Both the position numbers and the translations under genes were made by a program. This document shows, piece by piece, positions 32,601 through 51,366 of a stretch of DNA of 64,000 nt (its first letter is position 1; every line of letters begins with the position of its first letter). The notes beneath the pieces are model-generated. The model worked only from the letters and a program-made list of their open reading frames with translations, did no database searches and was not told the origin of the DNA. Source of the stretch: Yuukianura sp. NJ FZ-2021 (lineage: Eukaryota); contig JAJCTO010000010.1 in assembly GCA_046563655.1 (NCBI GenBank), positions 496,001 through 560,000 on the forward strand. The letters are read 5' to 3'.

Positions 32601-33675
32601 TGTTACACCTGGAAAAAGTGCATGAAGGTAGTTTTAAGATGAGATATTATTATTATTTGTATTAGTTCATTCATTTTGCTGTTTTCAAAATGTTGCAAAA
32701 ATTTAGTCAAATTGTAGAAAAACTTAAAGTGTCGTAAATTTGATAGAAAAGACTTTGGCGTTGGCATTAATGGGATCAATAAGGTTAAGCTCTAAGTTGC
32801 AGATGCATTAGAGTGCATGGGAAGACACCAGATTCAAGTCACCAGCAATTGAGATTGCTGTTGGCTTGAACATGGTTTTAGATTATAAAAATACAAAGTT
32901 GCGAATTTCCCAAAATTTTGCGAAAAAATACAATGTCAAGAATTGCAGGGTAGCAACCAAAAGTAACATCTATAAATATAGGGTGCAAGCATGCAGACAT
33001 TCGATCATTTCCTTCAGTTAGATTTTCAGTTTAAGTTTACTTCTTAGTTAAAGTTCTCTTTAAAAATTTTAAGTCATAATTTTCTTTTAAGACAAATAAA
33101 ATTTCGAAAATTCAAAAGTTCGATTCACTTCCGTCTCTCTCATCTACAACCAGCCAAGGAGCTAAGCTAAGCCAGGGAAAGATTCAGCGAGACTTGGACC
33201 CTTCGTCATCTGCATTCGACAGCCGAGGTAAATAACAAAGCAAACGATTCGATCATTGATTTGGGATTCAGAGGGACCGGGACTGGGAAGGGTGCAGGGC
33301 CTGTCGGCTCCTGGACGGGTTCACCCGTCAAAAGGTTAGGGCTCCCTCCACCGGAATTCCCTTCGTGCGCCTTGCGCCTCCGACACGGGCAGTTGCGACT
33401 GACCCAAGGAGGTGGGGCGTACAGTTAAGTGGGCCCTTGATCATAGGTGCTCCCTTTCAGCGTCCACTCCGCGCCACCGACGCGGGTAGTCTTTGACTGC
33501 CCAGGGTGGCGAAGTGGGTCTGCTGCCGGATCTACGGACCCCTTAAGGGTCAAACTTTCAATACCTACAAATACAATTGGCCTTTTTAGCGCCAGGTGAC
33601 CACGCTCCTTCGCTAAGTGGCCAATCGGGTAGGGCACTTATTCGAAGTGACCCCTTGACCTAATTGGCCCTTACA
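32601..33675 (+). repeat. 5' LTR of gypsy B (1075 bp)
   Basis: TATAAATA at 32971, initiator-like TCATTT/TCAGTT at 33005-33019, AATAAA at 33095, candidate splice donor GAG|GTAAAT at 33228. Confidence 0.9.
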
Positions 33676-34210: not shown

Positions 34211-34622
34211 TCCATTTAAGCATCCCTTTAAGCACGTAGACTTAAGTAAAATCAGCGCAGGTCAGGTCAGTGACCCTTGACCTTTAGTTTAAATTCATTT
34301 TTTTTGCAATTAAGTTCAAAAATTTTTAAAAACAAAAAATCACACAAACTTTCTAAATTAAAATTCATTCAATTCTAAAATTTTTGAAATTAACATTTCA
34401 TCTTTAAATTCGAAGTTTTGAAATTCTATTTCAACATTTCGACTTACTTTGGTAAAAACTAAACCATAGTTAAAACAAAATCTGACATTAAGTCAATCAC
34501 TTCGCTACATTCCAACTCTTTCTTGTCTCTATTTTGTTTAGAATAAACTGCGCCCTTAGCTTTTGAAAAAAAAAATTCTGGATCCAATTGATGTAGTTAG
34601 GCATCTCCATTTTACATTCATT

Positions 34623-35168
34623 ATGAGTATTCTGTTTAGGACTTGTGACGGGACTCTCCCGCAATCAGATCAGAGACCCTTAATAATTGCACACGTCACT
34701 AATAATTACGGAGCCTGGGGTAAGGGATTCTGCAGTCAATTATCATGGCGATACCCGCTTGTAGAATTGCATTTTAGAGCTGAAGGCTGGAAGGCCAGCC
34801 TAGGAGATATACAGACTGTTCCAATTGGTGAAGGGCTTCAGGTTGTTAATTTGTTCGCTCAACGCGATCCTTGGCATCCTGTTCCTATTTCCTATTATTC
34901 GTTAGATAAGAGTCTTGAGAAGCTAGGCGAATTAGCTAAAAATACAAAGGCCATTGTTCAGATGCCCTTAATAGGCACTGGATGTGGGCGCGGGTGCTGG
35001 GTGGAAGTAGAAAAGCTCGTTTGGAAGCATTTATGTAATAATAGGATTGATGTTCTCGTATGCTTGGAACGCAAAGTCGATTCCAACAATCAAATTATCA
35101 CACACAATTGTTTGACTAATCATCGTCATAACCCAGAGGCTCACTCTGGAATTTATCATTATCAGTAA
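34623..35168 (+). CDS. Macrodomain protein, TARG1/Poa1p/DarG-type
   Basis: IIAHVTNNYGAWGKGF, VVNLFAQ, MPLIGTGCGRGCW motifs. Confidence 0.85.
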   Translation: MSILFRTCDGTLPQSDQRPLIIAHVTNNYGAWGKGFCSQLSWRYPLVELHFRAEGWKASLGDIQTVPIGEGLQVVNLFAQRDPWHPVPISYYSLDKSLEKLGELAKNTKAIVQMPLIGTGCGRGCWVEVEKLVWKHLCNNRIDVLVCLERKVDSNNQIITHNCLTNHRHNPEAHSGIYHYQ

Positions 35169-36690
35169 TTCTATTCTAAAAATTACCCTGAGACATGGGA
35201 ATTAACGATGTCGTTTTCGACGTCGTTGTCGTCTTTACTTTTGTTTCCGTCATAATAAGTTTCAATGACAACCCAAGTTGGTACGTCGATAATTGAACCC
35301 CATGATCATATTCTGTTTGAATTTTGAAATAGTGAGGTTGTCTAAAAATGAAGCGTTCCGTTTAAAAGTATGCGTACACGCAGGATGGAATGGCGTTCAG
35401 CTTTCTCTTTGTCTCTTTGGCACTTAGTGATTTGAAGTTTACTTGGAACTTTAGGTTAGGTAAGATAGTTAAGCATGGTTCATACGGGTTAAGTAGTCGG
35501 TCGACCCAGGTCAGAATAGGCTCAACTAAGGCTCAACACCCAGTTCTACCTCAGGTATTCCTTGTACATAACATAGCTTACAGATAGGTCATATTAGATT
35601 ATAAGGCGCCACTCATAGCTTTAGGAAATGATCCCATTCTTAGCGCGGACTGGCTAGAATGTAATATTAAGTGTAGCAAGGATTTGCGCAAAGGTGATGC
35701 CGTGTTTACGAAGGAGACTTAGATCCGAAAGGTTAGGTCAAGGTCGGGGTGATCTTAGGCAACTGTCTAGAATGACGGGGCTGGTATTTGGGCGTGATGC
35801 CTACCAGCTGCCCCTTCAACAAATAATCCGAATCGAAGTGGATACTGAAATAGGCCCTCAGGCGGAAACTTCGGAGTGAGGTAGGCTCATTTGTAAAATC
35901 AAGCTAGCACTAGGTCACGGTTAGGGTTTAGAGTAGCAATGGCTCTGCCGAATCTATTAATCTTAACGCATAATTAAGTCAATTTATGAAGGAATTTCAA
36001 TAGTAGGTATCTCTTTCAGCGGTGTGAGCTAGCTCAGGATCCAGCGAGGACTCACGATTTCGTAACGATGTTAAACGGGTCAGGAGAGGTAGCTCTTTCC
36101 GCAAGTATTTCATAAAAAGGGGTTTGTTACAGTTCATGAAGGCCGCTTTATTTAAATTTAGGTCGGAATCAATGCACCAGGATTAAGCTCCCTGTTTTGT
36201 GCTCTGACCGGGTCAATGACACTTGTCCTGAAGAAACAAATCCCGTGTCAATAATTAACAGTTTGTTTGCTTGTATCTATTATGCCATGAGTGGTGACAT
36301 GTTTCTCCAGAGGGCCATGAACTGGGGAGATACGAGCTAACTACTTTGAAATTACCTAGGGATTTTATTTGAAGCATTGCCGTGTGTGGGCTGCTTCTTG
36401 TAACTTATGAAAGTGGAAAAAGCATTGCCGTGTTTTAGGCTGAATCCCTTCAAGTTGCTAAGGACTTATGAAGTTTAAATTGGTCGTATTTATTATGAGA
36501 AGTTTCATTGTTCATCTGAGAAGTTATAACATTTTGCGCATCCCAGCAGTGGAATTGTGGCATTAATTGTTTTTGTTTGAAAGAATAACAGAACATTGAC
36601 CTCCCGGAAGTCCCTTGATAATTCCACTCACTGGCGTGATCTACTTCCTAGAAAAAGGAATACGAAACTCCCTCAACTCCCAGCTCAACC

Positions 36691-38031
36691 ATGCGTCTGT
36701 TCGTGCTACTACTATTTATTGTTTCGGGTTACTGTAGTTACCTTAAGTGGGAAGGTCCCACTACCATTCACTGTCACGATGATGAGCGTAGCAAGAATCC
36801 ACCACGTATCAAAAGATACATTCCTTCAAATACCCCTTGGATCAAACGGAACATTACTTGGTCCATTGCTAACGTCCCATTACATTTAAATCTTAGCATT
36901 GTTAAGCTTGAAGCTCGACTGGCAATTGCTAAGTGGCAAGCAGCATCCAACTTAAAGTTCGAAGAACTCGAGAAACCAGCGCAAGCGGACATTCGAATCA
37001 GTTTTGAAAAGTTAAGCCACAATGATTCCGCTCCATTTGATGGAAGAGGTGGAGTGTTGGCTCACGCTTTCTTTCCAAGTGAAAGTCTGCTTGGAGGCGA
37101 TATACACTTTGACCTTGCAGAAAATTGGATCGTTGGTAAAAATGGAAAGGGAGTTAGTTTCTTTTCTGTACTATTACACGAATTCGGACATGCTATTGGA
37201 CTACGTCATTCCGACGTCCGTGACGCGATTATGACAGCATTTTACCGCGAATATGATTATTCAATTCGGATCAGTGACGATGATAAACGAGCTCTACAAT
37301 TTCTCTATAAAAATGCACCTAAATACGCGCCAATTCGGAAAAGTAGTTGGACAAATGATGACAATTTGGAAAAGAGCTTATGCCAAACAAATTACCGAAC
37401 TATTGCCAAAATTTATAACGAAATTTACCTTTTCGCGGACAACTATCATTATCGAATCGAAAACGGAGAAGTTTTTCTCTCCCAGCGAATGTATAATCAC
37501 AAATATTTTCAATATTTCCCAGAACATTTAAAATCTGACTTTGTGTTTCAATACGATCGAATGACTTACATTTTTTCTGAAGGGAAATATTTTAAGTACA
37601 TTTTTGGCGCAACTTTGGATAGGGGCTACCCGCGTAGCATGTCAAAGCTCAATTTAGCAGCCAATGCAAGCATCATTGGAGCCATGGAAATTGAGCGACG
37701 ACTCTATTTGCAAACAGCGACCGGATGGCGGTGTTACTATCACCACCAGCGCGAGTTATTCGAATCTTGTTGGGACGCGAAGGTCACTCAGCAATTGGCA
37801 CAGTTCACGACCCCTGTCACACAAATTGGAAGAAATGCTATGAATTTTAGCTTACTTAATGGCAATGAAGTTCTAACTTTTTCCTTGGACTTTGTGAAGC
37901 TTTCTTCTGAACCATTGATGGAATTTCTAAAAATTCCTTGTGTCGAAAATATTGTGGCTGGAAGTGCCGAGGCACAGCCGCAATGGTGGATTCTTTGTGC
38001 AGCTCTATTATTTATCTTATACCTTTTGTGA
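36691..38031 (+). CDS. Matrix metalloproteinase (M10A), intronless, with hemopexin-like region and hydrophobic C-terminus
   Basis: Signal peptide, furin site RIKR, FDGRGGVLAHAFFP, GGDIHFD, HEFGHAIGLRHS, Met-turn AIMTAFY, GYPR. Confidence 0.95.
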   Translation: MRLFVLLLFIVSGYCSYLKWEGPTTIHCHDDERSKNPPRIKRYIPSNTPWIKRNITWSIANVPLHLNLSIVKLEARLAIAKWQAASNLKFEELEKPAQADIRISFEKLSHNDSAPFDGRGGVLAHAFFPSESLLGGDIHFDLAENWIVGKNGKGVSFFSVLLHEFGHAIGLRHSDVRDAIMTAFYREYDYSIRISDDDKRALQFLYKNAPKYAPIRKSSWTNDDNLEKSLCQTNYRTIAKIYNEIYLFADNYHYRIENGEVFLSQRMYNHKYFQYFPEHLKSDFVFQYDRMTYIFSEGKYFKYIFGATLDRGYPRSMSKLNLAANASIIGAMEIERRLYLQTATGWRCYYHHQRELFESCWDAKVTQQLAQFTTPVTQIGRNAMNFSLLNGNEVLTFSLDFVKLSSEPLMEFLKIPCVENIVAGSAEAQPQWWILCAALLFILYLL

Positions 38032-38213
38032 GATACGTTAATTCTCCATTAAAAATGTCATAGTTGAGCACTATTGACTGGTTTTACCACATCATCGAAA
38101 ATGAAATGAATTTCGTGAATTGATGGGATTGAATGAACTTCGATTGTTCCAATTCCAAAAAGTTTTCAACCCTTTTTAACTTTTAATAGATTGCCTTGAG
38201 GCTGTAATAGCTC

Positions 38214-39787
38214 ATGAGCAAAGAAAAATCCAGTCGTCGTCTACAAAACAAACCGCCAGAATTTGGTCCAGAAGATTTAGAAGTTTTAGAAAGAGAGATC
38301 AGAATAGAAAGAAGCAAATCAAGATCACCCAGTACTGTTGAGATAGAAGTTAGCACTGAACAGACAGCAGAAGGCATTGTAGGGAAAATAGTTGTAGGAA
38401 GATCGGAGTCTGTAGGAACTCCTGATAGATTAGCGGTCGGATCTGTTGCTTCTGGGCTTAGCATCGCTTCCTGTGACGAGGAATTAGCGGAAATTAACGT
38501 TCCAATTCCACGAATTGAAGTTATTTCAAGTGAATCAGCCATGGCAGCTACTTCAACCCCTGTGGTTAGCGCGATTTCAATTTGGACACCTCCGGGTGAA
38601 CTGACCTTTAAAGGTCAACGGGGTGCCAAGGCAAATGAATTTTTGGACAAATTTAAAGCAATTGCTGTCTCCCAACATTGGGATGACGCAACTAAAATTG
38701 AGCATTTTGGCCTTTACTTAATTGGGCCTGCGAAGATGTGGCTATCAACATTTAAAAATGAATGGAAACGTAATCCTTTGAACAAAAACGCTCAAGGAGA
38801 CGTTAAGACTTGGAAACAAATTTTCGTGACGAGTTTAAATCTCGTTTGACTAAAGACGCGTTAGAGGACAAATTAGCATCTCGCAAGAAGGACAAAAATG
38901 AAACTGTTGAAGACTATTACTATAACGTGATGAAGCTCTGTGACCAGCTTGAGGCTAGTCAAGGGTCTTCGATTAAAGAAGATGAGCGGATTTTGTATTT
39001 GTTGAAAGGATTGACCCCGGAGTTAGCTTGGGTCATCCACCAGAAAAGTCCATCGACTACTAAGGAGGTTCTGAGTGAATTGATTCGGAAAGAAAACTTC
39101 GATTATAGCTTCAAACGTAAAACAACGTTAATGCAAAATAGAGAATTAGAAGAGGCTGTTCAGACTATTTTTCCACTGGCAATTAGCGACGAATCAGGTA
39201 ATGACAAGCAGTCAATGACGGTTCAAACTTCTCAGATGGGTTATCAGCGGAGTTCTACCATTCCTGGTTCTCGAGGACGAGTACCTGGAACTCAACATTC
39301 TCGGGGAAGCGGTCAAGGATCTGGAATTCTCCGTGGCCAAGGAAGCCGTCCAACGGCAGTCTACACTCGCTCTTATCAACCTCGTCACACTGCTCATGCG
39401 GTTGGATTTGAGCCAATTCCGCAACAAGTTGCTCATTGTTACAGCTGTGGGTCAAGCTCTCACCCCACCAGGCAATGCCCGGAAGAGAAGATTTTGCGTA
39501 CTCCGGCACGGCTTAGATGCAGCATCTGCGAGTCTACCATGCACATCGGTAGAACCTGCCCTCATCGCGAACAAGTCGCAGCTCGCCGTGCGTGTTACCA
39601 GTGTGGCTCCGAGAATCACATGAAGCCTCAATGTCCGCAGCTTCAACGGAAATCTCCAGGTCCTCGGCAGATGAATTGTCAAATCTGCAAATCAAACGCT
39701 CATCCTACTCAGGAGTGCCCGCACAAACCCAAACCGGAAGCTCAGTTGGAAAAGAAAGTTGTGGTAAAAGAGGAGCGACGCCAGTAG
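38214..39787 (+). CDS. gag: Gag of gypsy B (one frameshift near 38820), four CCHC knuckles
   Basis: WDDATKIEHFGLYLIGPAKMW; ETVEDYY...LLKGL; four CX2CX4HX4C motifs. Confidence 0.9.
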
Positions 39788-39789
39788 GA

Positions 39790-42700
39790 GGGACTGACGT
39801 CGATTTGAATCTTAATTCCTCCGTAGTACATAGTTGTCATGCAGTAGAGCCATCAGATTCTTTTCCTGAATTAAATTTTGGTAACGTGGTTACCACAATC
39901 TATTTCGTTGATGGCGATAAACGACGTCGTATTACTGGATTAATTGATACAGGAAGTCCAGTTAGTATAATTATGGCTCAGCACGTTCAAGCTCACGAGT
40001 TGGTTCCTCAACTTCCTGGTCTTAAACTATTATCCGCCAATCAGGCTAAAATTCCAATCTTAGGTTCTGTCAAAAAGTCATTAGTTTTCTGAAAATCTTC
40101 TGATCAAGTTTTGTCTCATTCCTTTTTAGTTATTGAGAAATGTCTCTTTGATATAATTTTGGGAAACGATTTCAATTCCAAAAATCTTCTCACCCTTAGT
40201 TTCAATTCCGCTCCAAAGGGATACGGAAGTTATTCATACGTCGGCATGAGAGTTCCACGACCTTTCAAACTATTTTCAAACGATAGCTTAGGACTACCTC
40301 TTCATCTACATCACCTTCAGCGGCAAGGTTCTAATAAATTGAACCATCATACCCCAAGGTCATTACCATTTCTGAGGAAATTTTGCCTCCATTTTCTACA
40401 ACCAAAGTTCTAGTGAAGCCAGTCACTCCTATCACAGGAACCTTGTCATTCGAACCAAATCAGCATCTTTTAGATCGACTTGGGCTCTGCATTCCATATT
40501 TAGCTCATATTGAAGAAGGCTGTTTTGAACTACCAATCGACAACCCAAGGCCGGTTCCAACTACTGTTTATGCTGGTGTTCACGTAGGAAATTTGACGCG
40601 TGTTCAAATCCGCGAGGTTGAAGCAGAGGACAATATTCGCCAAGCTAGGTTTAAATCCACGAAGGAAAATATTGATCAGATTATCATTAATCCTGATTTG
40701 TCCATGGCAGAACAGCAACAACTAAAAGATTTGATTCTTAAATACGGGGATACCATGGCATGGGACCTTGATCAGTTAGGGAAGGTGCAGGATGAATATT
40801 TCAAAATTGATACGGCGGATGCAGCACCCATTTCCAGTGCCCCTTACAAAAAGGCGCCTCATGAAAAACGCATCATTGAGGAGGAAGTGGATAAATTACT
40901 TAACGCAGGGATAATTCGAGAAAGTACTAGCACTTGGAGTGCAGGTGTCAGCTTAGTTAGACGTCCAGGTAGTGACAAAGTTCGAATGCTGATTGACTAT
41001 CGTCGCTTGAACAATGTAACTAAAAGCCAGTCTTATCCAATGCCCGTCATCAACGAGATTCTTTCTTCTTTCACCGGATGTAAAGTTTTCTCTTCCTTAG
41101 ATTTAGCCTCTGGCTACTTCCAACTTAAAGTCCATCCGGATGACGTGGAAAAGACAGCTTTTATAGTACACAATGGAACGTATGAATATCAATACGTCAG
41201 TTTCGGAATGAAACATGCTCCTGCCTTTTGCAATTCGGTCATTACGAAGGTGTTAGGTCGGCGTCTTTACAAATTTGCTCAGGCTTATTTAGATGATCTT
41301 TGCATTCACTCCAAGGACTTCAAAACTCATTTAGAACATCTGGAAGACGTTTTTCAACAATTTCAAAGATTTAACCTCACTTTCAATCCCGCAAAGTGTC
41401 ATTTTGGAAAAAGTAAATTAGAGTTGTTAGGTCACGTCATCTCTGACAAAGGCATTTCAGTTTCTGATTCCAAAGTGAAAGCGATATCTCTCATGCCTCC
41501 GCCTAGGAATGTTGGCGAAGTCAGGACATTTCTCGGTTTATGCGGATTTTACCGTCGATTCATTTTAAATTATAGTCAAGTAGCTAAATCACTCACCGAC
41601 CTCACAAAGAAAGAGAAGCCATTTCAGTGGAGTTCAGATTGTCAGGAAGCTTTTGAAACACTTAAAAGTAAACTTATGACAGCTCCTATTTTAGCCTACT
41701 TTAATGAAAATTTTGAATTAGAGCTTCATACGGATGCTTCCAACAAATGTATCTCGGCAATTTTAAATCAAAGGAACTTAGACGGAAAATTAGAAGTCGT
41801 TGCGTATGCTAGTCGAACTTTGAAGGGTGCGGAAGAGCGTTACAGTACAACGGACAAAGAAGCTCTCAGTGTTGTCTGGGGACTAGAGAAATGTCGTGAG
41901 TACATTGGATTTCGGCCATTGATCATCGCGGTCGATCATCATAGTCTTTGTTATTTAAAAACATGCAGGAATTTCAGAAATAGTCGGTTAGCTCGATGGG
42001 CCTTACGTTTGCAGGACGTAGACTACGAGATTCGTCATGTGAATGGGAAAACTCACTATCAGGCCGATTGTCTATCCCGCTTTCCGATCGACGATGAACA
42101 AGAATTCAAAGATGACTTTCCGATTCCTTGGTTTCTTACTACGGTTGTCACTCCTACCGATTCAACCGACGATCTTCAGCGCAATCAATTGGCTGACTCC
42201 AAATTGAAATTTATTATCGAAAAACTTAAATCACATTCTCACCATAAATTCTCTAAAAAGTTTATTCTTGACGATGATTTGCTCAAGTGGAAATGTATCA
42301 AAACCGGGAAACTTTTACCCGTAATTCCTCATCTTTCAATTCCTGAGATACTGCCACGCTTCCATGACGACATTCATTCTGGTCACATGGGAGTAGAGCG
42401 GACTCTGGAGCGCGTTCTTCGCAGTGTCTTCTTTTTCAAAATGCCTAAGATCGTTGAGAATTATGTCCGTTGTTGCAAAACGTGCCAGCTTCGGCGCAGT
42501 AGAAATACGAAACCTTTGGGGAAATTGTGTCCTATTTCCGTAGGTCAAATGTTCGACCGAATGAGTTTAGATGTAATTGGACCGCTGCCATCGTCCAAAC
42601 GTGGTAACAAATTCATTGTCGTTGCTGTAGAATTTCTTTCTAAATTTGTTTTCGCTCGAGCTATCAAAAAGCAAACTACTAAAGTAATGTTAGATTTCTT

Positions 42701-43721
42701 GACTGACATTTTTCAGACTCATGGACTACCAAAAACTCTTCTCAGCGACAATGCTTCAATTTTTACGTCTGACTTTTTCAAACAGTTTCACAAATCCCTT
42801 GGGATTATTAACGTCTTTTCCAGTCCGTACCATAGTCAAACTAACGGGCTCTGTATCTCTCCGAACAGAAGTATTGAAGAAGTTTTAACGAATTACACTT
42901 CCGTGTCTCAGCGAGATTGGGACAAGTATTTAGGGTCTGCCGTTTTCAGCCTAAATACAGCGGAACACAAAGAAAGCACTGGTTTTTCCAGTTTTTACAT
43001 CATGTTCGGTCGCCACCCGAACCATCCGTTGGATCTTGTCTGGGATACTGTACAATCCAACGACGACATTCCCACTCGCATACGCAAAATGCAGGAAGCT
43101 AGAGATTTAGCCAAACTTGGCATTGAAAGAGCGCAGGCTCGTCAGGCCAAGTCCTACGATGCCAAGCGTCTCCTTGATGAATTTGAAATTGGTGATTTGG
43201 TTTTGGTCAAGGTGACCAAGGTGGAACCTGGCAGGTCACGGAAATTGTGTTTCCGTTACCGCGGTCCTTATGTTATTGTTCAAAAGAACTCTGCTCTGTC
43301 TTACAAATGCAAGCCTCATAAGCAACAAGATGACTCAGATCCGATTCGCGTTCATATTTCTAATTTAAAGAAATTTGTAGACAGTGAAGGTATGACCCAC
43401 CTTTGTCACAAGCCGTGTTTGTCTGACCCGGGACGGGCAGATTCTAAACCGGGAAAGCTTCCTATGGAAGTGGTAAAGATAACGGAAACCCCAGAAGCAG
43501 ATCCTTCGGATAAGTTGATTCCGGATGATCTGTTAGAATTTGAGTTTGAAGAACCTACAGTAGATAAAGTGAGCTTAGGCTCTGAATCTGAAAGTGAAAG
43601 TAGTGAAAATGCATCATCAACTGAAGACGAGGAGATTGAAAAAGATAAACTTGAAAATGTTGTTAGAACTAGGGCTGGAAGAGAAGTCAAGAAACCTGTT
43701 AGGTTTGGAATAGACTCATAG
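39790..43721 (+). CDS. pol: Pol of gypsy B: protease (frameshifted near 40090 and 40380), RT, RNase H, integrase
   Basis: LIDTGS and IILGNDF protease; LDLASGYFQ and YLDD RT; TDAS and ADCLSR RNase H; HSGH..CKTC, DDE and GPY integrase. Confidence 0.95.
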
Positions 43722-43763
43722 TTATTCTAAAAGGGAAATCGAATGGAATAGAAATTAATTCAG

Positions 43764-46007
43764 GTTAAGCTCGAGGTCGTACTGATTGTAGCGGCTTTTG
43801 CGAGTATTACCACTTCCCAGAAAAACTCAATTTATCCGACTCAAGTTCGAGTCACCTCTGGAGCCTTCGTTCGAGAAATCACGGACGCGGAGCTTTACAC
43901 GGCAACTGTTCCTCTCATCTACGATTTAAATGTAACCTTTGCGGAAATCCCACAAAATTTATTTCGTTCCAAAATTTGTGAAACAAGCGCGGATGGATGC
44001 AGTTTTCAGATCACAATTCGCGATATGGTTAATCATGTTAGCCAGACTTTAAGAAACATTTTGAAAGACATCCTTCATGATCCATCCTCCGGAACAGCAC
44101 GAGAGTTCCTGGCCAGAGGACAGCGTTCTCTTGATTTAGAAAGTCTCAATCCTCTCAATCTTGTTTCCGATTTTTATTCATTCTGTTGCGGCTTTGTCAG
44201 CAAAAGAGACATGAAGTGCCTCTTTTCAAATGAAGTTGAAGTTAAAAAGTTCTTGGAAACCTTGAAAGGTTCAGTGGTGGCCAATAACCAAAACGTCATG
44301 ACCATCAAAGAAAGTTACGAACTGTTTCGTGGCAACGTTTCCCGAATTGTTAACCGAATCCATAGCAGCTTAGAATCACTAAGCCAAGAAATGAATGAAA
44401 CCATCACTGAAGAAACCGAAATCGCTAGACAGGTGAACGCATTGTCACGAGAAGTCAGCACGTTCCAGAGAGGTTTCATGCAAACATATTTTCATCTGAA
44501 TTCAATTGCCGAAATTATGCAGTTCACTGATCTTCAATCCCATTGTCGCAGTCATACAATTCCCTTGCTCGCCGTTAATCCCCAACGACTCACCAAAGAC
44601 TTACGAAACATCAACCGAAAAATTAGAAATGATGGTTACACCTTGGCCATTTCAGCAGAAGACGTTTCCAAATACTATAAATTACGAATAGCGGACTGCA
44701 CCTTCACTCCGGAAGGAAGAGTAATTTTTCGGGTTAAAATTCCTATTCGACGAATTGAAGAAAATTGGAAGCTATTCGAGATGGTCAACATTCCATTTGG
44801 CTTCAAAGGAAGTATTTGTATGATTCAGCATGCACCCACTTACGTAGCTGTTGCCGCTAACAACATCATCACCATCCAGGGAACTCAGCTGCACCAATGT
44901 CAGCCTCATTCCGGACTCTGTCTTGTACCTCAAACGAACAGCAATCCAATGGTCGGTTTCCTTTGCGTCAAACATCTGCTAAAAGGTTCAAGCGTTCGAG
45001 AACTAAATGATGTATGCATTTTTGAGTGTGTGTTGGGTAACAACGAATTAACGGTCACCCAATTAAGCTATGATACTTTTATTCTAACTGGAAAAGTTGA
45101 AGGCACCAAAATAGATTGTGGTGAAAGCAAAAGCTTTTCCGTGGGTCCGCCGACGGAAGGCGTGGGAAGCCTTCAGGTGAAATTAAGCTGTGATTGCTCA
45201 GTAAAAATTCCAGGAAGATCCCCAATTCGACCTCCATATCCTTGCCCGGACGACCTCGTAAACTATCCCACAGTCCATATTATAATTCCTACCGTCATGT
45301 CAAAAATTGATGTTATGCTAAAAGCCAACAATCGAGGTGAACCAGTTACTTTTCCCCACCTCCATGCAGTTTTCAATGAAACTTGGGACCTAGGTTCACC
45401 CCGCCTAAATTTAACAGAAGTCAGCAGAATTAAACAATTGGTAGTACCAAATTTAATTCACGTCATTGCTCCCACTACAGATACCATGCTGATAGTGTGG
45501 AACATAGCTTTGAGCGTCATTCTGGGATTCATGATGTACAAACAATGCTGTACCAACGGAATCGGCCCAGTCATAGGACTCGGATTGATGGACCGAATTA
45601 GAGGAGTCGCAGCACAAAGCTCGGAAGCCCATCACACCACAAACATTGTCATAATTGGAATTTTGTTTTTCCTACTGCTACTTGTTCTTCTCGTATGGTA
45701 TATTTACCTTTATCGAATCTGCTCAGAGCAAAGAAAGAACGAGTTCAACGTTCCCCCAGAGAAAAAGAGAGAAGGAGCCGATGTAAAGCCTGCCACCGAG
45801 ATTAAGGACGGAGCCTCCAAAGTTAAAATTCCCAAAGCATCTGCAGAAGTTAATTTGGAAGTGGGAATTGGAGAATCAAAGAAATTTTTAGTCCCAGAAG
45901 GAATGCCTTTACGACTCACAATGAGTCATGCTGAAACTCGCGTCCTTAAAAGCTTCCAGCCCAAACTTGATCCAACGTCAGAAACGACGGTTGAAACTTA
46001 TGTCTAA
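43764..46007 (+). CDS. env: Envelope fusion glycoprotein (baculovirus-F/errantivirus Env-like), probably spliced
   Basis: Frame is open 87 codons upstream of the 44025 ATG, starting after TTCAG with hydrophobic VVLIVAAFASITTS; furin-like RGQR; heptad region; Cys-rich ectodomain; YY..IFRVKIPI..LFEMVNIPF; N-glycosylation sequons; C-terminal transmembrane helices. Confidence 0.85.
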   Translation, partial: VKLEVVLIVAAFASITTSQKNSIYPTQVRVTSGAFVREITDAELYTATVPLIYDLNVTFAEIPQNLFRSKICETSADGCSFQITIRDMVNHVSQTLRNILKDILHDPSSGTAREFLARGQRSLDLESLNPLNLVSDFYSFCCGFVSKRDMKCLFSNEVEVKKFLETLKGSVVANNQNVMTIKESYELFRGNVSRIVNRIHSSLESLSQEMNETITEETEIARQVNALSREVSTFQRGFMQTYFHLNSIAEIMQFTDLQSHCRSHTIPLLAVNPQRLTKDLRNINRKIRNDGYTLAISAEDVSKYYKLRIADCTFTPEGRVIFRVKIPIRRIEENWKLFEMVNIPFGFKGSICMIQHAPTYVAVAANNIITIQGTQLHQCQPHSGLCLVPQTNSNPMVGFLCVKHLLKGSSVRELNDVCIFECVLGNNELTVTQLSYDTFILTGKVEGTKIDCGESKSFSVGPPTEGVGSLQVKLSCDCSVKIPGRSPIRPPYPCPDDLVNYPTVHIIIPTVMSKIDVMLKANNRGEPVTFPHLHAVFNETWDLGSPRLNLTEVSRIKQLVVPNLIHVIAPTTDTMLIVWNIALSVILGFMMYKQCCTNGIGPVIGLGLMDRIRGVAAQSSEAHHTTNIVIIGILFFLLLLVLLVWYIYLYRICSEQRKNEFNVPPEKKREGADVKPATEIKDGASKVKIPKASAEVNLEVGIGESKKFLVPEGMPLRLTMSHAETRVLKSFQPKLDPTSETTVETYV

Positions 46008-46148
46008 AAGTGACTAAAAAGATGTTCATATGAACTGTAGTAGTGGTCGAGAATTGTAGAGTTATAACTTTGGATCAGGTGTACACTGAATTGTGCCCTG
46101 TAATTTTAAAACAACAATGAAATTGTTAGTGTAACTATTCTGTTTTAG

Positions 46149-46331
46149 ATGGACTTAGAGCGCGAGCTTAGGAAGCGACGTCGAGCTCTCATGTTAGCCG
46201 CCATACGACTGGCCAAGCGCAGGCGAGATAAGACCGCTAGACTTTGTTTCTGTCAAGCAAAAATTCAGGAGTTGACTGTTAGAATTGAGGTTATGGAGAG
46301 AGAACTTGAAGAAGATAAAGAAAATGATTAA
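46149..46331 (+). CDS. Small basic/coiled-coil ORF (60 aa)
   Basis: ATG directly after TTTTAG; LRKRRR and KRRR basic patches followed by heptads. Confidence 0.45.
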   Translation: MDLERELRKRRRALMLAAIRLAKRRRDKTARLCFCQAKIQELTVRIEVMERELEEDKEND

Positions 46332-47478
46332 CAAAGTCAATTTACATTGTTTTACCTTGTGAAAGAAAACGTAGTAAAAACGTAGTGTTGCAATTTAATA
46401 GTGTCTCGTGGACCTTTGAGCTTATTAATGCCTATTGTACATGCTAAAAATATCTGTCAAATTGCGTCAACTTGGTTCATTCCATGCAGTTAATTCCGGT
46501 TCGGATTACAGTATTGGAAATTCTGTCAGATTAGTGACTTCGGTCTGATTAGAGTAATGGTATGAATTCGGATTTGTGCCTTCAAGGAGTGCTAGCATCC
46601 AGCGGCTCAGCCTCTAGTTAGTTTAAAACTAAGATTCAATCGACACATTGTCATGAAGAATTGTAGGTTCTTCTGTCACGGTCGCCGAATCCAATGTAAA
46701 CATTTGTTTTGTGAAATGACCCAGTCTTCTAATGCGAAGTTCAGCATTGGTTCATGAGTACACTGAATTTCACCAAATGCAGGAGATACAATGTTGTTGA
46801 ACACCGATTCTTGCCTTGACTACAATGTCAAAATAAACTAGATCTTAACGTATAAAATTATAATACTCCAAGGAATATTTCTTCAAAGCAGTTAGAACGG
46901 TTACAGTTGGTAAATCGTTCTGATTTATGTTGCCTGTTTCTTGAGCCATTACTTCTTGGCCAAAGTGTACACGTCAATTAATCCTGCATAACATGGTTGA
47001 AATTCGGAACAGAAGAATGTCTCCATTTTTAGTAAACAAATATGATTGAGTATTTTTTTACGTAGATTCAAAGAACCTTTCACGGGTTGTCGTAGAATGC
47101 GAATTCTTAGTAAGCACGGATTAGAAATCACTACAATGAAACAGCATTGCCACATGATTATTTAGTCTTTCCAAATCCAACTTCAAATGAGATCAAGTAC
47201 CTTGACCTCTAACCTGGTCGTCATGACGTGTTTTGGCATACCAGCCACATAATTAATTAATATTCAATATCAAATTGAAAAACTATTCATCATATTCGAC
47301 GAAGCTCTTTTTAATTTTAGGTTGACAAGGAAATCTCGCTTTATTCAAATCTTTAGACAAAGAAAATTCCTGAGTTAGCACTTGCAAATTCCCCAAAAAG
47401 GAAATTGTTGAGTTGGCTAGCTGTAAAGCAGCGCTCACGACGAATTCTTGACCTGCAAGGTCACACCGCCACGTCCGT

Positions 47479-48177
47479 ATGACCTCGGCCCCGCTGAAGC
47501 CTGGAACCCTTCACTTTTATGAGTTGCCAGAGCTAGTTTTGGACAAAGTCTTCCAGTTCTGTTGCGTCAACGATTTAACAAACGTAGTCGACGTGTTCCC
47601 CAAATTGTTAAAATACATAGAGGAAACGAAAAGACGGGCTCGAGCCAAACAAAATCAAATATTCAGTAATATTGTAATACTCCAGCGATCGTATTACCCA
47701 GGAATACTTACAGTTGACCCCAACAGTCATACAAAAATAGAACAATTCTTGGCAAAAATACCACTTAACGTTTTTCCAATTCTCTTAAGTCAATTTATTT
47801 TGGATTACAATCAACCACTCCAGCTTCACTGGCCGGCCATTGTAACTTTCGCTCCAGCAGAGTTGGAACGGATCTTGCGCAAATTCGGGATTGAATATTA
47901 TAACTTTCACGACTATTGTACACTTGTTCCTCTTGGGCCTCGCCCAAAACCATACCGTTTTCAAACATTAGCAAAACAAATTCGAAAGTATACAAAAGAT
48001 AGAGAAGACTTAGCGACTCATTTAGAAAGAATTTACGCGCGAGAACTTCCTATCTACTTATCGGCTTTTACTACCGCTCAACGTAAAGCCCGGCGGCGCG
48101 CTCGGCAATACTACACGCGTCGAGGGTTAGGAGTTACTGACGAGTGGCTCGATATCGCTCTGTGGGAATTTCTCTAA
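47479..48177 (+). CDS. F-box-like protein
   Basis: N-terminal FYELPELVLDKVFQFCCVNDLTNVVDVFPKL fits the LPxE..I..L...DL..V F-box pattern. Confidence 0.65.
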   Translation: MTSAPLKPGTLHFYELPELVLDKVFQFCCVNDLTNVVDVFPKLLKYIEETKRRARAKQNQIFSNIVILQRSYYPGILTVDPNSHTKIEQFLAKIPLNVFPILLSQFILDYNQPLQLHWPAIVTFAPAELERILRKFGIEYYNFHDYCTLVPLGPRPKPYRFQTLAKQIRKYTKDREDLATHLERIYARELPIYLSAFTTAQRKARRRARQYYTRRGLGVTDEWLDIALWEFL

Positions 48178-48191
48178 TTTTCTCCTGCATA

Positions 48192-49070
48192 ATGCTGCGA
48201 TTCAAACGGTGTGCCAGCATCGCATTGCCACTCCGACCAAGTTCTGGAATTCTTCCAGGATTTGTGTTTTTATGTCCAGCTGATACTGTTTTAGCGGCCA
48301 AGGGAACAGCAGTAATTCGAACCTTTATTGAAGTTGACCTCCCGGAAGGAACTTACGGTCGTATAGTTCCATCCAGCGAACTCGGAAATTTAATTAACGT
48401 AAGAATGGACTTAATTGAACGGGACCAGCGCGGACCAATCGAAATTATCCTTTATTCTCATGATTATACTAACCGAATTATTAAGCGCGGTCAACAAGTC
48501 GCTGAAATCATTTGTGAAAGATTCGATAAGTATGAGTTACAAGAAGTCGCACGGCTTCCGCGAAGAGAGGAAAATGTTATGCGCGCGACTTTTGCCGAGA
48601 CGGCCTGGATGAGGAAAGTCCGCTTCAACCTTCTCGTTATCCCGACGATATGCCGCACTCGGCGAACCTTCGATTTACGGCCAATAATTTTGGGCAACAG
48701 CGGCAATGAGGTTTTCCCGGAAAGAAAATTATTTCCAGTCTTGGAATTTATTGAAGAATCGGGAGATCAGACCCAGAGCCAGATCGGAATTTGGAGCGAT
48801 TTCTTTTTACAATTAGCTACAAGAGATATAGAAAACATTTGCCTTCATTACCAAATTTATCCTCCAAGCTACTATTTTAAATATAAAGAAATCATTTGCA
48901 TAGATTTGCTTCAATGTGATGCGAAATCCTCTTTCCGGCTTTTATTGAAAACGTTCGAGGGTTATCGTCGATATGGTAGATCAATTCGAGAGGAATTGAT
49001 GTACCACATCAGACTTAAATCCCGGGGAGACTACGAACTCCGACCCAGAAGTAATCGGTTCCTACATTAA
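48192..49070 (+). CDS. Degenerate dUTPase-fold protein with C-terminal extension
   Basis: LPEGTYGRIVPSSEL, LIERDQRGPIEIIL, IKRGQQVAEIICER align to dUTPase motifs 2-4 with catalytic substitutions; motif 5 absent. Confidence 0.8.
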   Translation: MLRFKRCASIALPLRPSSGILPGFVFLCPADTVLAAKGTAVIRTFIEVDLPEGTYGRIVPSSELGNLINVRMDLIERDQRGPIEIILYSHDYTNRIIKRGQQVAEIICERFDKYELQEVARLPRREENVMRATFAETAWMRKVRFNLLVIPTICRTRRTFDLRPIILGNSGNEVFPERKLFPVLEFIEESGDQTQSQIGIWSDFFLQLATRDIENICLHYQIYPPSYYFKYKEIICIDLLQCDAKSSFRLLLKTFEGYRRYGRSIREELMYHIRLKSRGDYELRPRSNRFLH

Positions 49071-49236
49071 GGGGATCCTAACTTGTCAAAGGAAAATTAA
49101 CTGTAGTCCCTGTTACACACGTAGTAAATAGTAGAGAAAAACTGTAGTTTATTTATAGTAACAAACATTATAAGGGAACGTAGTTCTAAATAAAAATTTG
49201 TAAAATGTAAATCCGAAATAATCAAATTGATTTCAG

Positions 49237-50463
49237 ATGTCTTCAATTTACACTTCTGCTAAGGATCGATGGGCTGAGAGATTGCGAATTAACCGTCGCA
49301 GAACCATTGTTTTGAATCACCAAATTCGGTCTCAGATTCGGGCAGTCCAGGGTGCCTCCTTAATTTGCTCCATACATCCCTCTGCTCTTCCCAAAACTAT
49401 TCATCATCCCCACTCCTACTTTCATAGACATGAGCAGGTTCAAAAGTTTATTTCACGAATAGCCAGGCAAGAACCTATCGCAGTCACGTGCTTCCAAAAC
49501 GAAGAGACTTACTTAGGGGAGACTACAGCAATCGGCCTCTGCTCATTAGGAATGTCATGTGTCATTGAAACAAAGGAGCTTTATCTTCAAATCAAACCGT
49601 TCTTAGAACCAATTTTCCTGGACGCCACTACGCCAAAAATTTTTGCCTCCTACAGTGAGATTCTTTGGCTCATTCGAGATTTCGGCCTTTACACAGTAGC
49701 TGCCATTGACATCACTCAACTCAAGCTCACGCCAGCTTGGACACATGATATCAGTTTCAACCTTTTATGCGAACAATTCCTTGGAGAATCGCATCAAAAA
49801 CCGAAATTTCATGATCCCACTCTCCTCAAGCTATATACAGCCATGAAAGCACACACAGACACTCTGTTTCGCCTCTGGAAACGTATGAGGATTGGATTGA
49901 CAAAACGAGCTGATTTTGCAGATGTCATCAGAATCATGGTAAAAGCCTCGGGACAAGCTGCAAGTAAGCAGCTTAAATCACCTGGATTAGTAAAAGGCTC
50001 TCGACCGCTAATAGTTCCAGCAGACGTTCCTTCCCGCCGTTTGGACAAACTCATCAGCAATGTTATTATACGACTCGGCGTTATTCTTGACCAACCTCTC
50101 TCCAGTTTTCGCACTCGATATTGGGAATGGGCGACCGTTCAACAAAGTCACGCTCAGGCACGTGTGAATCGATTTCTCCAGTCATTCAAGCTACCTACGG
50201 ATCACCCATTGACTAAAACGGAAGTCATAGCCGAAATCAACAACCTCTTTATGGACGACATCGGTGCAGTAGCTTCATCCACTGGACACTCTCCACAACC
50301 AATCGCTTCACCCGAAGATAGCCCTCCTCCTGCGAAAACACCGCGATTGTCGGCTCCTCCTCCACCAGCAATTGCCGGTACCTCACGCAGCAGCATTCCC
50401 ATACCATCACTGGATCGTTCCTTTCGGCCTCCTGCAGTGCCTAACTGTAACAGTGTAACCTAA
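49237..50463 (+). CDS. Rrp6/EXOSC10-like DEDDy exonuclease-domain protein, predicted inactive
   Basis: TYLGETTAIGL, VIETKEL, FLDATTPKIF..SEILWLIRDFGLYTVAAID resemble Rrp6 SFLGLTCLMQI, IIDTLEL, LTDPAIVKVFH..SDIEWLQKDFGLYVVNMFD; ExoI VDLE reads VTCF. Confidence 0.75.
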   Translation: MSSIYTSAKDRWAERLRINRRRTIVLNHQIRSQIRAVQGASLICSIHPSALPKTIHHPHSYFHRHEQVQKFISRIARQEPIAVTCFQNEETYLGETTAIGLCSLGMSCVIETKELYLQIKPFLEPIFLDATTPKIFASYSEILWLIRDFGLYTVAAIDITQLKLTPAWTHDISFNLLCEQFLGESHQKPKFHDPTLLKLYTAMKAHTDTLFRLWKRMRIGLTKRADFADVIRIMVKASGQAASKQLKSPGLVKGSRPLIVPADVPSRRLDKLISNVIIRLGVILDQPLSSFRTRYWEWATVQQSHAQARVNRFLQSFKLPTDHPLTKTEVIAEINNLFMDDIGAVASSTGHSPQPIASPEDSPPPAKTPRLSAPPPPAIAGTSRSSIPIPSLDRSFRPPAVPNCNSVT

Positions 50464-50465
50464 CT

Positions 50466-51104
50466 GTGGTCACATTAACCAAACCACAACAGACAGCAAC
50501 CATTGTGCGACCATTCGAGGAAGAGTCTACTACCCCGCTCACTGCAAGTCACATTTCCGTTGACCCAGCACCTACTCCGACAATTGCAAGCAGCGAGCCT
50601 CAAGGATGTATCGATGAGCCGTATGTTCCTCGTTCATCTATTGAAACGGAACTTAGAGCTGAATTGGACAAATACAAAATCAAATATCTTGCCATGTCCG
50701 CCAAAGCCCGCACCCTAGAAATTGGGCTCGACCTATACAAATCCTCTCCCCGATCCTCTGAACGATCCTCTCTACGATCCTCTGCCTTAGCCGTTCCTAC
50801 TGCCATTCAAGTGAAGCTGCCTCCCCTCTGGACGCCTCCTGGTCCCAACAAGACGCCGGTTATGGCAGTCACGGCAATGTGTGCCCAAAACCAAGTTGGT
50901 CACACTCCAACTCCAGGGCCAGTTGCAGGGCCATTTTCCAGGCCAGCTCCAGGGCCAGTTGCTGGACCTTCTTCACGCCCAGCTCCAGTGCCAGCACTAC
51001 CTCCGGCAGCCAACTCGGTTGTTATCATAGACTCCGACGACGACGACACCATCTATCGCGCTTCGGACTCTGAAACCGATTACAGCTCCGACGAGGACGT
51101 CTGA
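50466..51104 (+). CDS. Pro-rich/coiled-coil ORF with acidic SIM-like tail, possibly the frameshifted continuation of 49237-50463
   Basis: No ATG start; ELRAELDKYKIKY coil; ends VVIIDSDDDD...SSDEDV just before the purine tract. Confidence 0.5.
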   Translation: MVTLTKPQQTATIVRPFEEESTTPLTASHISVDPAPTPTIASSEPQGCIDEPYVPRSSIETELRAELDKYKIKYLAMSAKARTLEIGLDLYKSSPRSSERSSLRSSALAVPTAIQVKLPPLWTPPGPNKTPVMAVTAMCAQNQVGHTPTPGPVAGPFSRPAPGPVAGPSSRPAPVPALPPAANSVVIIDSDDDDTIYRASDSETDYSSDEDV

Positions 51105-51121
51105 AATTAAACCGGGAAAGA

Positions 51122-51366
51122 TGTTACACCTGGAAAAAGTGCATGAAGGTAGTTTTACTCCGCGCCACCGACGCGGGTAGTCTTTGACTACCCAGGGTGG
51201 CGAAGTGGGTCTGCTGCCGGATCTACGGACCCCTTAAGGGTCAAACTTTCAATACCTACAAATACAATTGGCCTTTTTAGCGCCAAGTGACCACGCTCCT
51301 TCGTTAAGTGGTCAATCGGGTAGGGCACTTATTCGAAGTGACCCCTTGACGTAATTGGCCCTTACA
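51122..51366 (+). repeat. 3' LTR of gypsy B, internally deleted (245 bp)
   Basis: First 36 nt match 32601-32636; the remaining 209 nt match 33467-33675. Confidence 0.92.

Follow-up and report, generated by a model that had tools for sequence, protein, structure and literature searches.

The last open reading frame of an 18.8-kb env-bearing Ty3/Gypsy element in Yuukianura sp. NJ FZ-2021 is, as far as its sequence tells, the gene of a pseudo-nuclease, a descendant of an Rrp6-type exonuclease that has apparently been kept for a long time by this lineage as an accessory gene. Tentatively, the reading that I favor is that the protein oligomerizes, binds the RNA of its own element and shields this RNA from decay. 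Within the window (the whole stretch of 64,000 nucleotides analyzed here, positions 496,001 to 560,000 of contig JAJCTO010000010.1), the element displays the hallmarks of an errantivirus in the broad sense, namely LTRs, PBS, PPT, a target-site duplication, the PR-RT-RH-IN order and env (Table 1), and its protease region is interrupted in this copy.

Table 1. Features of the element and of its last gene (positions within the window).
Feature	Position	Strand	Basis or remark
5' LTR (TG...CA)	32601..33675	+	self-BLAST and sister-copy BLAST; 4-bp target-site duplication ATGA upstream, TGG-starting PBS downstream
Macrodomain ORF (accessory)	34560..35168	+	PDB macrodomain matches, best E 1.6e-13; no Pfam match; dN/dS 0.21 vs sister
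Matrix metalloproteinase (MMP), hemopexin repeats, hydrophobic C-terminus (accessory)	36652..38031	+	Pfam Peptidase_M10 E 2e-46, Hemopexin E 2e-5
gag, two frames in window copy	38211..39787	+	Retrotrans_gag, zf-CCHC slightly under cut-off; sister has one 530-codon frame
Protease region and pol (RT, RNase H, integrase), Ty3/Gypsy order	39553..43721	+	Pfam RVT_1, RT_RNaseH, rve, Integrase_H2C2; ORF list
F-type env	43752..46007	+	Pfam Baculo_F E 2.8e-8, over cut-off
Accessory ORF X	47452..48177	+	no Pfam match; N-terminus F-box-like by eye; dN/dS 0.10 vs sister
dUTPase-like ORF with extra C-terminal domain	48141..49070	+	Pfam dUTPase E 1.7e-13; dN/dS 0.12
Splice-acceptor-like sequence	49219..49236	+	ends in CAG, ATG immediately after; from sequence
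Short basic N-terminal arm	49237..49401	+	net +8 over first 60 residues; no PMC2NT
Rrp6/RNase D-type (DEDDy-fold) exonuclease domain, predicted catalytically dead	49402..49896	+	dN/dS 0.15
Four-helix domain at HRDC position	50008..50283	+	AlphaFold model, pLDDT 65
Pro/Ser-rich linker	50284..50463	+	frame break of window copy at ~50443-50463
C-terminal tail	50451..51104	+	coiled-coil-like heptads, Pro-rich repeats 50907-50978, SIM-like VVII and acidic run ~51018-51047
Polypurine tract and 3' LTR	51109..51366 (3' LTR 51122-51366)	+	3' LTR internally deleted vs 5' LTR; ATGA next

The first-pass annotation described two reading frames at this place, and the frames themselves stand: ORF1 runs from an ATG at 49237 to a stop at 50463 (408 aa) and contains WLIRDFGLYTV, and ORF2 (50451-51104, 217 codons from stop to stop) lies in another frame and lacks an initial ATG. 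However, 18 residues are still to come after the VVIIDSDDDD with which ORF2 was said to end, and ORF2 is not a separate gene. The comparison of sibling copies that had been suggested for detecting a fusion was informative here, because the sister copy on contig C9 is a single 618-codon frame carrying the same motif at its end; ORF1 and ORF2 are thus, on sequence, one gene, with ORF2 as its C-terminal tail, and the single frame in C9 rules out ORF2 as a gene of its own or as the product of a programmed frameshift. The break is confined to the window copy, from which only a truncated protein would therefore be expected, and matches to ORF2 were limited to the window and C9 loci (2/3 candidates). 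Upstream of the ATG, a YAG is found at a distance of 0-37 nt in 6/7 representatives, and the pyrimidine-rich TCTCAG/G is common to three copies with dS >1.

The Rrp6/EXOSC10-like blocks that had been noticed in ORF1 go beyond chance. A phmmer search of the PDB gave 13 matches at E<=10, every one of them (13/13) to Rrp6/EXOSC10 (best E 4.3e-4), and a profile built from four divergent family members gave 18 matches at E<=1, the top 13 being Rrp6/EXOSC10 (best 1.1e-7), so that the significant DEDDy profile match on which the first-pass annotation had staked its proposal was found. Pfam PF01612 scored 19.1 bits on ORF1, under the cut-off of 23.6 that the relatives L013 (26.7) and P0003 (32.9) pass. 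The structure alignment proposed at the same time also leads to Rrp6: the 12 top rows listed by Foldseek are Rrp6 (12/12; best E 6.5e-6), and VIA against yeast Rrp6 gave Z 10.8 (rmsd 2.4, 102 aligned residues), a value that for VIA alone is tied with EXD2 (Z 10.7) and that comes from a weak model (pLDDT 58; residues 107-211, the low-confidence C-terminal half of the exonuclease domain, below 50). Egalitarian-BicD and EXD1 were also among the fold matches. Sequence and model together place the domain, as a prediction, in the DnaQ-like exonuclease fold of the DEDDy/RNase D superfamily. As a lead, the ESM Atlas gave a feature score of 0.94 to clusters of 3'-5' exonucleases from large DNA viruses.

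That the DEDD acids are mostly replaced was borne out as well. In the D/E/D/Y/D catalytic columns, the residues of ORF1 are T84, F86 (a gap in some alignments), E141, A202 and H206, which means that the acids of ExoI and ExoIII and the tyrosine are lost, that the Glu at ExoII is the single remaining acid, and that the signature of active enzymes (ExoI D-x-E, ExoII D, ExoIII Y-x3-D) is absent. The catalytic residues are lost in 9/9 family rows and D-E-D-Y-D is kept in 9/9 control rows, and ExoII carries the common replacement Gln in 8/9 family rows; the catalytic residues were lost before the sub-lineages, of which there are at least five, diverged.

The genome holds 16 related loci, and 12 full-length relatives have frames that are open over 423-618 codons. 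The order env-(X)-(dUTPase)-dead exonuclease-LTR recurs in six other full elements, all young copies by their LTR pairs (95.7-100% identical); in one sub-lineage the dead exonuclease follows env immediately, and the metagenome contig L070 shows the order MMP-dUTPase-dead exonuclease. The dead exonucleases form one clade (support 100/99), as do the integrases of their elements; across sub-lineages, however, identity is 19-22% in the exonuclease domain and 59-63% in the integrase. Word-based protein searches among near lengths confirmed 0/2383 candidates for P0001 (E<=0.01) and 0/3515 for alignment A1 (E<=1e-6) and found P0003 itself alone among 1475, and DNA scans with A1 gave 50 candidate stretches in metagenomes and 67 in viral sequences, none of them confirmed.

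Could this be a captured nuclease that has simply lost its function and now decays as a passenger? The broken frame of the window copy and the fragments at several loci (C4, L015, L018, L070) would fit, but the 12 open frames, the common replacements at the catalytic columns and, above all, the selection tests speak against it. The purifying selection that the first-pass annotation had made a touchstone was found, with a dN/dS of 0.15 for the exonuclease domain between the window and the C9 sister copy; other estimates for family pairs, from the domain or the whole ORF, were 0.05 and 0.11, 0.07-0.33 and 0.10-0.19, and all pairs that span the domain and have a measurable dS (up to ~2) stay well under a dN/dS of 1 (dS was saturated in two pairs). 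The C-terminal tail gave 0.39 (p 0.031), and values for the Pro-rich linker (0.40, p 0.58), the helical domain between window and C9 (0.16, p 0.15), the last 60 tail codons (0.28, p 0.095) and the L016/L017 tail (0.60, p 0.49) were not significant. The decaying passenger thus appears largely refuted, and I consider it very improbable; the dead exonuclease diverges far faster than the integrase and yet is under purifying selection.

What remains of the other parts of Rrp6 bears on a second explanation, namely that the protein acts as a decoy: by titrating subunits or cofactors of the exosome, or partners from the SUMO pathway, it would lift the silencing of elements in trans. Its precedent, as reported in PMC4577213, is that over-expression of catalytically dead RRP6 in Drosophila S2 cells acts as a dominant negative and leads to more retrotransposon and repeat RNA; the protein used there was full-length, with docking domains that the window protein lacks. 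SUMO, according to PMC8490990, connects piRNA targeting with heterochromatin, and many of the effectors bear SIMs; the host genome has both a SUMO gene (an exon was recovered without the end of the fold) and an intact Rrp6. However, a profile of the Rrp47/C1D-binding PMC2NT region, made from 37 cellular N-termini and recovering the host Rrp6 exons as positive control (E 4e-18 and 3e-13), matched 0/7 dead and 0/9 active element protein sequences, and only ~55 residues lie upstream of the exonuclease domain. Rrp6 joins the exosome core through its C-terminal exosome-associating region (EAR), as described in PMC5314766, and an EAR profile found no match in the dead family, this profile being weak enough that the host region itself reaches only E 0.0045. 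The decoy idea of the first-pass annotation thus has an experimental precedent, but an exosome titration by the usual docking parts of Rrp6 is unsupported.

The SIM-like motif argues in both directions. VVII followed by DSDDDD, a hydrophobic core with an acidic run in a disordered tail, is indeed present in the window and C9 copies, but a motif of this class turns up by chance in 3-11% of shuffles of this tail, depending on the type of shuffle (651/20000, 1799/20000; 542/5000, 417/5000), by a threshold fixed after the motif had been seen, and it occurs in only 1/12 full-length dead relatives. It is not conserved across the family, and SUMO binding as a core function of the family therefore has to be given up. 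Since catalytically intact element-type Rrp6 proteins bear such motifs in their tails more often than shuffling predicts (10/24 database matches vs 2.6-3.7 expected, with >=10 in 0/500 shuffles; 5/8 genome copies vs 1.8-2.8 expected), it may be a lineage add-on, a pattern that would suit a decoy, although cellular Rrp6 tails are also somewhat raised over shuffles (12/68 vs 7-8). Overall, I rate the decoy as unlikely.

Further along the protein, the ADWRxRP loop and the HRDC, both parts of the catalytic module of Rrp6, are heavily altered or unrecognizable in the dead family, and RNA binding by this family is therefore an assumption. Profile and fold searches gave no clear HRDC match for the helical domain: hhalign reached E 0.029 (probability 1.7%) against element-type and E 0.35 against cellular HRDC regions, with a positive control at E 1.6e-15, and the best VIA match was an unrelated spidroin repeat (Z 7.3, rmsd 3.1, 92 aligned). 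Net charge of the exonuclease domain ranges from -10 to +4 across five dead rows, so there is no uniform basic surface. A strongly remodeled active-site loop and HRDC could mean that the fold now serves outside RNA decay, as a protein-protein scaffold or a modulator of the host that works alongside the other cargo (macrodomain, dUTPase-like, F-box-like, MMP), and the gene does have the dUTPase-like gene as its neighbor in L070 as well as in several sub-lineages. Nevertheless, because one sub-lineage has neither the dUTPase-like gene nor X between env and the exonuclease, the gene is independent of both, and the basic N-terminal arms and the common Gln at ExoII suggest that a ligand occupies the old pocket; such a scaffold seems to me quite improbable.

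Coiled-coil scores exceed those of shuffles in the C-terminal segment of 12/12 full-length relatives, by a purpose-made heuristic; six proteins were scored over 21 residues, and the six that had scored zero at this width were rescored over 14. The dead Rrp6-like protein thus always ends, by prediction, in a coiled-coil-like segment. If it shields element RNA, as I tentatively prefer, it would be made from a spliced subgenomic RNA, would oligomerize via this coiled coil, and would hold RNA with the retained exonuclease fold and the basic arms without cutting it; element transcripts would then be protected from Rrp6/exosome-type 3' decay through competition for RNA and not through exosome docking, and in this sub-lineage alone the SIM-like motif may tether the protein to SUMO-rich silencing sites.

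Egalitarian has a non-cutting exonuclease domain and binds RNA and routes it, and complex retroviruses have Rev-type proteins for RNA routing. The pseudo-nuclease may likewise be an RNA adaptor for the life cycle of its own element rather than a means of counter-defense, binding element RNA for unspliced export, localization or packaging. Several observations suit such an adaptor: the gene is always retained in last place and with a coiled coil, the acceptor-like sites imply a multi-mRNA programme in need of export control, Egalitarian-BicD and EXD1 are among the fold matches, and at locus L019 the exonuclease domain follows a gag-like N-terminal stretch and lies upstream of the gag of an unrelated Gypsy. 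On the other hand, Egalitarian ranks below Rrp6, and divergence faster than pol fits conflict at least as well. I regard this adaptor as a close rival of shielding, though doubtful in itself; if correct, a complex retroelement of an invertebrate would have turned Rrp6 to a Rev-like or Egalitarian-like function.

Shielding can be extended to a bolder and rather unlikely proposal, in which the env-bearing lineage encodes a counter-silencing pseudo-nuclease derived from the host exosome nuclease that would oligomerize on nascent element RNA, block Piwi-coupled exosome decay and engage SUMO-dependent silencing through lineage-specific tails (the SIM here, and Pro-rich repeats possibly competing for proline-peptide-binding cofactors). 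Such cofactors, and a requirement of Piwi-mediated silencing for the nuclear exosome, are described in bioRxiv 10.64898/2025.12.16.694471. If true, an animal LTR element would carry its own protein suppressor of nuclear RNA silencing, in a cassette whose other genes (macrodomain, dUTPase-like, F-box-like and metalloproteinase) are like those of large DNA viruses. Animal retroelements are usually credited with few means against small-RNA and exosome silencing; VANC is the name associated with the role of transposon-encoded silencing suppressor. The gene also offers a small soluble protein for asking whether elements can shield their RNA from exosome decay.

Active DEDDy cargo is already known from rotifer retroelements and the dead form was not found in print: the literature searched, mostly open-access and with Repbase outside its scope, contained no dead Rrp6-like gene in a retroelement. 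According to PMC5408684, the Juno and Vesta LTR retrotransposons and the Athena/Terminon retroelements of bdelloid rotifers carry a DEDDy-exonuclease ORF3, its role given as unknown, with 3'-end processing or silencing proposed. In Juno and Vesta, as in the window, a DEDDy/RNase D-type exonuclease is extra 3' cargo; however, as portrayed there, the rotifer ORF3 keeps its catalytic residues (DEED) and comes with no true env and no coiled coils, whereas the window domain is predicted to be dead, is Rrp6-like and followed by a coiled coil, and stands downstream of an F-type env and further cargo. The same source names EXD1 and Maelstrom as catalytically dead DEDD proteins with RNA binding retained. 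EXD1, Maelstrom and Egalitarian share with the window gene a DEDD fold without catalysis, but they are host genes of other DEDD subfamilies, and the window gene is element-borne and closest to Rrp6. With Rrp6/EXOSC10 itself it has the exonuclease fold and the xYLG and RDFG blocks in common, and differs in lacking the catalytic acids, the tyrosine, PMC2NT and introns, with HRDC unrecognizable and no EAR match by the weak profile. The carrier has the gag-pol-env order, F-type env, LTRs and PBS of the env-carrying Ty3/gypsy 'ancient errantiviruses' as described in PMC13524379, a study whose supplements include springtail members.

As to descent, recent capture of the host Rrp6 is ruled out by the tree, in which the host exon falls among cellular Rrp6 (99/100) and the dead clade stands apart on a long stem. 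The host retains its own intact, intron-containing gene. Descent from the pool of intact element-borne Rrp6 is unsupported, the trees giving the dead clade no fixed sister group; a single clade of dead and cellular sequences is not rejected by the AU test (p 0.61), and for the N-terminal arm the match to the element-type profile is as weak as that to the cellular one (E 0.017 and 0.019). That pool is represented in the same genome by another Gypsy lineage (L021-L045), whose intact Rrp6-like ORF3 has EXO and HRDC and often a zinc knuckle, and whose integrases form a separate clade, 27-32% identical to those of the dead-exonuclease elements. Like the dead gene, this ORF3 is intronless, Rrp6-derived, located behind pol and devoid of PMC2NT, with a low-complexity tail that often bears SIM-like motifs; unlike it, D-E-D-Y-D is intact in 9/9 aligned copies and the gene directly follows the integrase. 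Rrp6-derived cargo is thus carried by two Gypsy lineages of one genome, in an enzymatically intact form by one and in a dead but selected form by the other, which offers a natural comparison of active and dead forms.

The two motifs quoted in the first-pass annotation, which saw a catalytically dead Rrp6-like domain followed by another ORF with a SUMO-interacting-type tail, are both where it placed them, with VVIIDSDDDD near the end of ORF2. A DNA search of the genome gave three matches (the window locus itself, contig C9 with a 98% copy, and contig C4 with an 80% fragment), and the C9 copy fuses ORF1 and ORF2 in a single 618-codon frame ending with the same SIM-like motif, so sequence comparison shows one gene, the last ORF of its element, and ORF2 does not stand as a separate one. 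The frame break lies at about 50443-50463, and since the gag region, the protease region and the 3' LTR are likewise damaged, the window copy is a decaying member of a young family. Judged from its sequence, the gene is a real, selected pseudo-nuclease accessory gene of a retroelement.

Features of the window and their coordinates
Feature	Position	Strand	Description
Element, 18.8 kb	32601-51366	+	LTRs, PBS, PPT, ATGA target-site duplication
Macrodomain ORF and matrix metalloproteinase (MMP) with hemopexin repeats	34560-38031		between 5' LTR and gag
ORF X (accessory)	47452-48177		N-terminus F-box-like by eye
ORF1	49237-50463	+	ATG to stop, 408 aa
ORF2	50451-51104	+	217 codons stop to stop, other frame than ORF1, no starting ATG
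Presumed BEL/Pao-type pol	31394-32481 and 51312-52408	-	on both sides of the element, by integrase motifs
Large palindrome	56905-60481		arms about 735 nt, 99% complementary, 42-nt repeats
Multi-exon host gene	28198-29706

The likeness of ORF1 to Rrp6 is weak yet specific in single-sequence comparison, as all 13 matches at E<=10 in a PDB sequence search were Rrp6/EXOSC10 (best 4.3e-4), and it becomes significant with a four-sequence family profile (best E 1.1e-7, with Rrp6/EXOSC10 as the top 13 of 18 PDB matches). Pfam PF01612 scored 19.1 bits on ORF1, under the cut-off, and passed it on two relatives, locus L013 and database protein P0003. An AlphaFold model of modest quality (residues 56-345, mean pLDDT 58, below 50 for model residues 107-211) retrieved Rrp6 structures as the best 12 Foldseek matches listed (best E 6.5e-6, TM about 0.33), and structure alignment with VIA-align gave yeast Rrp6 a Z of 10.8 (rmsd 2.4, 102 residues), tied with EXD2. 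Descent from Rrp6 is thereby shown at the level of sequence and predicted fold, and the claim that the DEDD acids are mostly replaced was borne out: the five catalytic columns of ORF1 hold T84, F86 (where a second alignment has a gap), E141, A202 and H206. All nine aligned family representatives are without the acids of ExoI and without the tyrosine and aspartate of ExoIII, and eight of them carry Gln at ExoII; D-E-D-Y-D stands in 9/9 control rows. The full set is present in 101 of 147 aligned database Rrp6-like proteins, most of the others being fragments (the 147 come from 150 profile-search matches, with P0005 and P0006 omitted as chimeric or repetitive and P0035 because the domain was not covered). 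Catalytic residues are missing as well from several Rrp6-like database proteins outside the dead clade, P0011 and P0027 among them, and loss of activity may thus have occurred more than once.

Purifying selection is likewise evident, with an exonuclease-domain dN/dS of 0.15 (Nei-Gojobori, window versus C9, p 6e-4) and two further sub-lineages gave 0.05 and 0.11; a mere passenger gene is very improbable. Pairs of whole or part ORFs gave 0.07-0.33 in one set and 0.10-0.19 in another, at dS up to near 2, and controls from the window-C9 pair gave 0.13 for pol, 0.31 for env and 0.12 for the dUTPase-like gene; the C-terminal tail stands at 0.39 (p 0.031), and several short gene segments were not significant. 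Identity between sub-lineages is 19-22% in the dead exonuclease domain and 59-63% in the integrase; the domain, by these comparisons, is always kept yet fast-changing.

The window element reads macrodomain, MMP-hemopexin, gag, pol, F-type env, ORF X, dUTPase-like gene and dead exonuclease. Protein-level searching of this genome in two rounds (10 and 15 matches) located at least 16 loci altogether, which fall into at least five sub-lineages; at least 12 of these loci, the window not counted, hold a full open frame (423-618 codons). The last position is fixed: six other full elements (LTR pairs 95.7-100% identical) all have MMP-gag-pol-env with the dead exonuclease last, preceded by a dUTPase-like gene in four and by none in two, and among the remaining mapped loci one has env directly before it, the others being partial or rearranged. 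The MMP lies upstream of gag in all six; outside the window, the macrodomain is seen in the C9 sister alone. By eye, F-box-like N-termini also mark accessory ORFs at L051:3328-5941, L062:7828-8637 and L054:3230-4195, and the C8 element has three tandem paralogues between pol and env; a Pfam scan of eight such ORFs gave a weak F-box match (E 0.32) in one only. Long tandem-repeat arrays on both flanks of three young members (L004/L006, L050/L052, L059/L061) suggest an insertion preference for satellite DNA. A cassette of X, dUTPase-like and dead-exonuclease genes at L054-L055 (G000:C10:956433-962865) has no gag-pol of its own nearby, and X and the dUTPase-like gene are repeated after it. Locus L019 (G000:C10:1068458-1070254) suggests that the module has moved between lineages: there, a dead-exonuclease ORF whose N-terminal stretch looks gag-like by eye is found immediately upstream of the gag of a Gypsy element to which the family is not related (integrase 26% identical). 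A profile search of 1.84 billion representative proteins gave 419 matches at E<=0.001, the top two being dead-type and metagenomic (P0003, E 4e-42; P0004, E 4e-18); the contig of P0004, L070, carries hemopexin, dUTPase and dead exonuclease in the window element's order in broken frames, with no gag, pol or env match. Of 10 clusters looked up, Orchesella dallaii is the single one with a species name, and the host is probably an arthropod of springtail type.

In a domain tree of 37 rows, an author-chosen subset of 161 aligned domains, the dead proteins fall together in one clade (100/99) apart from cellular Rrp6, with which the host's own intact, intron-containing gene groups (99/100); the integrases of their elements likewise make up a single clade, whose branching order is compatible with that of the domain. 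In a second Gypsy lineage of this genome, EXO-HRDC ORFs with intact catalytic residues follow the integrase directly. PF01612 matches the genome 57 times, about 25 of the best being long intronless ORFs (L021-L046); those inspected stand directly behind an integrase, keep their catalytic residues and HRDC, and often have a zinc knuckle. The dead gene may derive from this kind of element-borne pool or, separately, from a cellular Rrp6: the branches that join in the tree are long, and dead and cellular proteins as one clade were not rejected by an AU test (p 0.61).

In Rrp6, PMC2NT is the part that binds Rrp47, and the EAR region provides attachment to the exosome core (PMC5314766). A PMC2NT profile built on 37 cellular N-termini picked up the host exons and matched none of seven dead and nine active element sequences; since this region and the catalytic residues, both checked, are absent, the dead gene is not Rrp6 proper. 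An EAR-region profile matched no dead or active element sequence and was weak on the host gene too. The helical domain after the exonuclease occupies the HRDC position, and it was recognised as HRDC in neither profile comparison (E 0.029) nor fold search. That the protein is a decoy for exosome or SUMO partners, as the annotation proposed (SUMO background in part of PMC8490990), draws on SIM-like motifs (my own criterion, a hydrophobic core with at least four acids within eight residues) being over-represented in the tails of element-type proteins that are catalytically intact, 5/8 in this genome versus 1.8-2.8 expected and 10/24 database matches, so labelled from their N-termini, versus 2.6-3.7, with 12/68 cellular tails versus 7-8; it is nonetheless rather unlikely, given the missing PMC2NT in the seven dead-family sequences and a motif that, although present, is confined to 1/12 full-length dead relatives with a chance expectation of 3-11% in the window tail. 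The SUMO-type motif is a lineage-specific extra. A coiled-coil-like C-terminal segment, by contrast with that motif, is common to 12/12 full-length relatives, its score (my own heuristic, two window lengths) being reached by at most two of 300 or 500 shuffles.

An acceptor-like YAG precedes the ATG by 0-37 nt in six of seven representatives, as a raw count. The reading I tentatively favor, short of calling it probable, is that the dead exonuclease would be expressed from a spliced RNA, would oligomerise, would bind RNA without cutting it and would shield element RNA from exosome-type decay. It has precedents: over-expressed dead RRP6 raises retrotransposon RNA in S2 cells (PMC4577213), Piwi silencing requires the nuclear exosome (bioRxiv 10.64898/2025.12.16.694471) and there are dead DEDD proteins that bind RNA (PMC5408684). 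An adaptor for export, localisation or packaging is an unlikely alternative to such shielding, and a scaffold acting without RNA is improbable; a silencing-suppressor role is plausible from the sequence, and the full counter-silencing reading is doubtful. DEDDy cargo in LTR retrotransposons is described from bdelloid rotifers in the section concerned of PMC5408684, with catalytic residues intact, whereas those of the window family are replaced, and a passage of PMC6338049 cites DEDDy exonuclease as a known accessory domain of such elements. PMC13524379 catalogues Gypsy elements with env from animals other than insects, among them springtails; term searches of its text and seven supplementary files did not find such exonuclease cargo, and the literature searched gave no paper on a dead Rrp6-like gene in a retroelement.

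Elsewhere in the window, the element sits inserted within what I take to be the BEL/Pao-type pol, and Pfam gave no match on 51704-52405. The palindrome contains a zinc-finger and P-loop ATPase ORF, presumably akin to a Polinton/Maverick packaging ATPase, and the multi-exon host gene resembles, as I assume from its motif, a PI-PLC X-domain protein.
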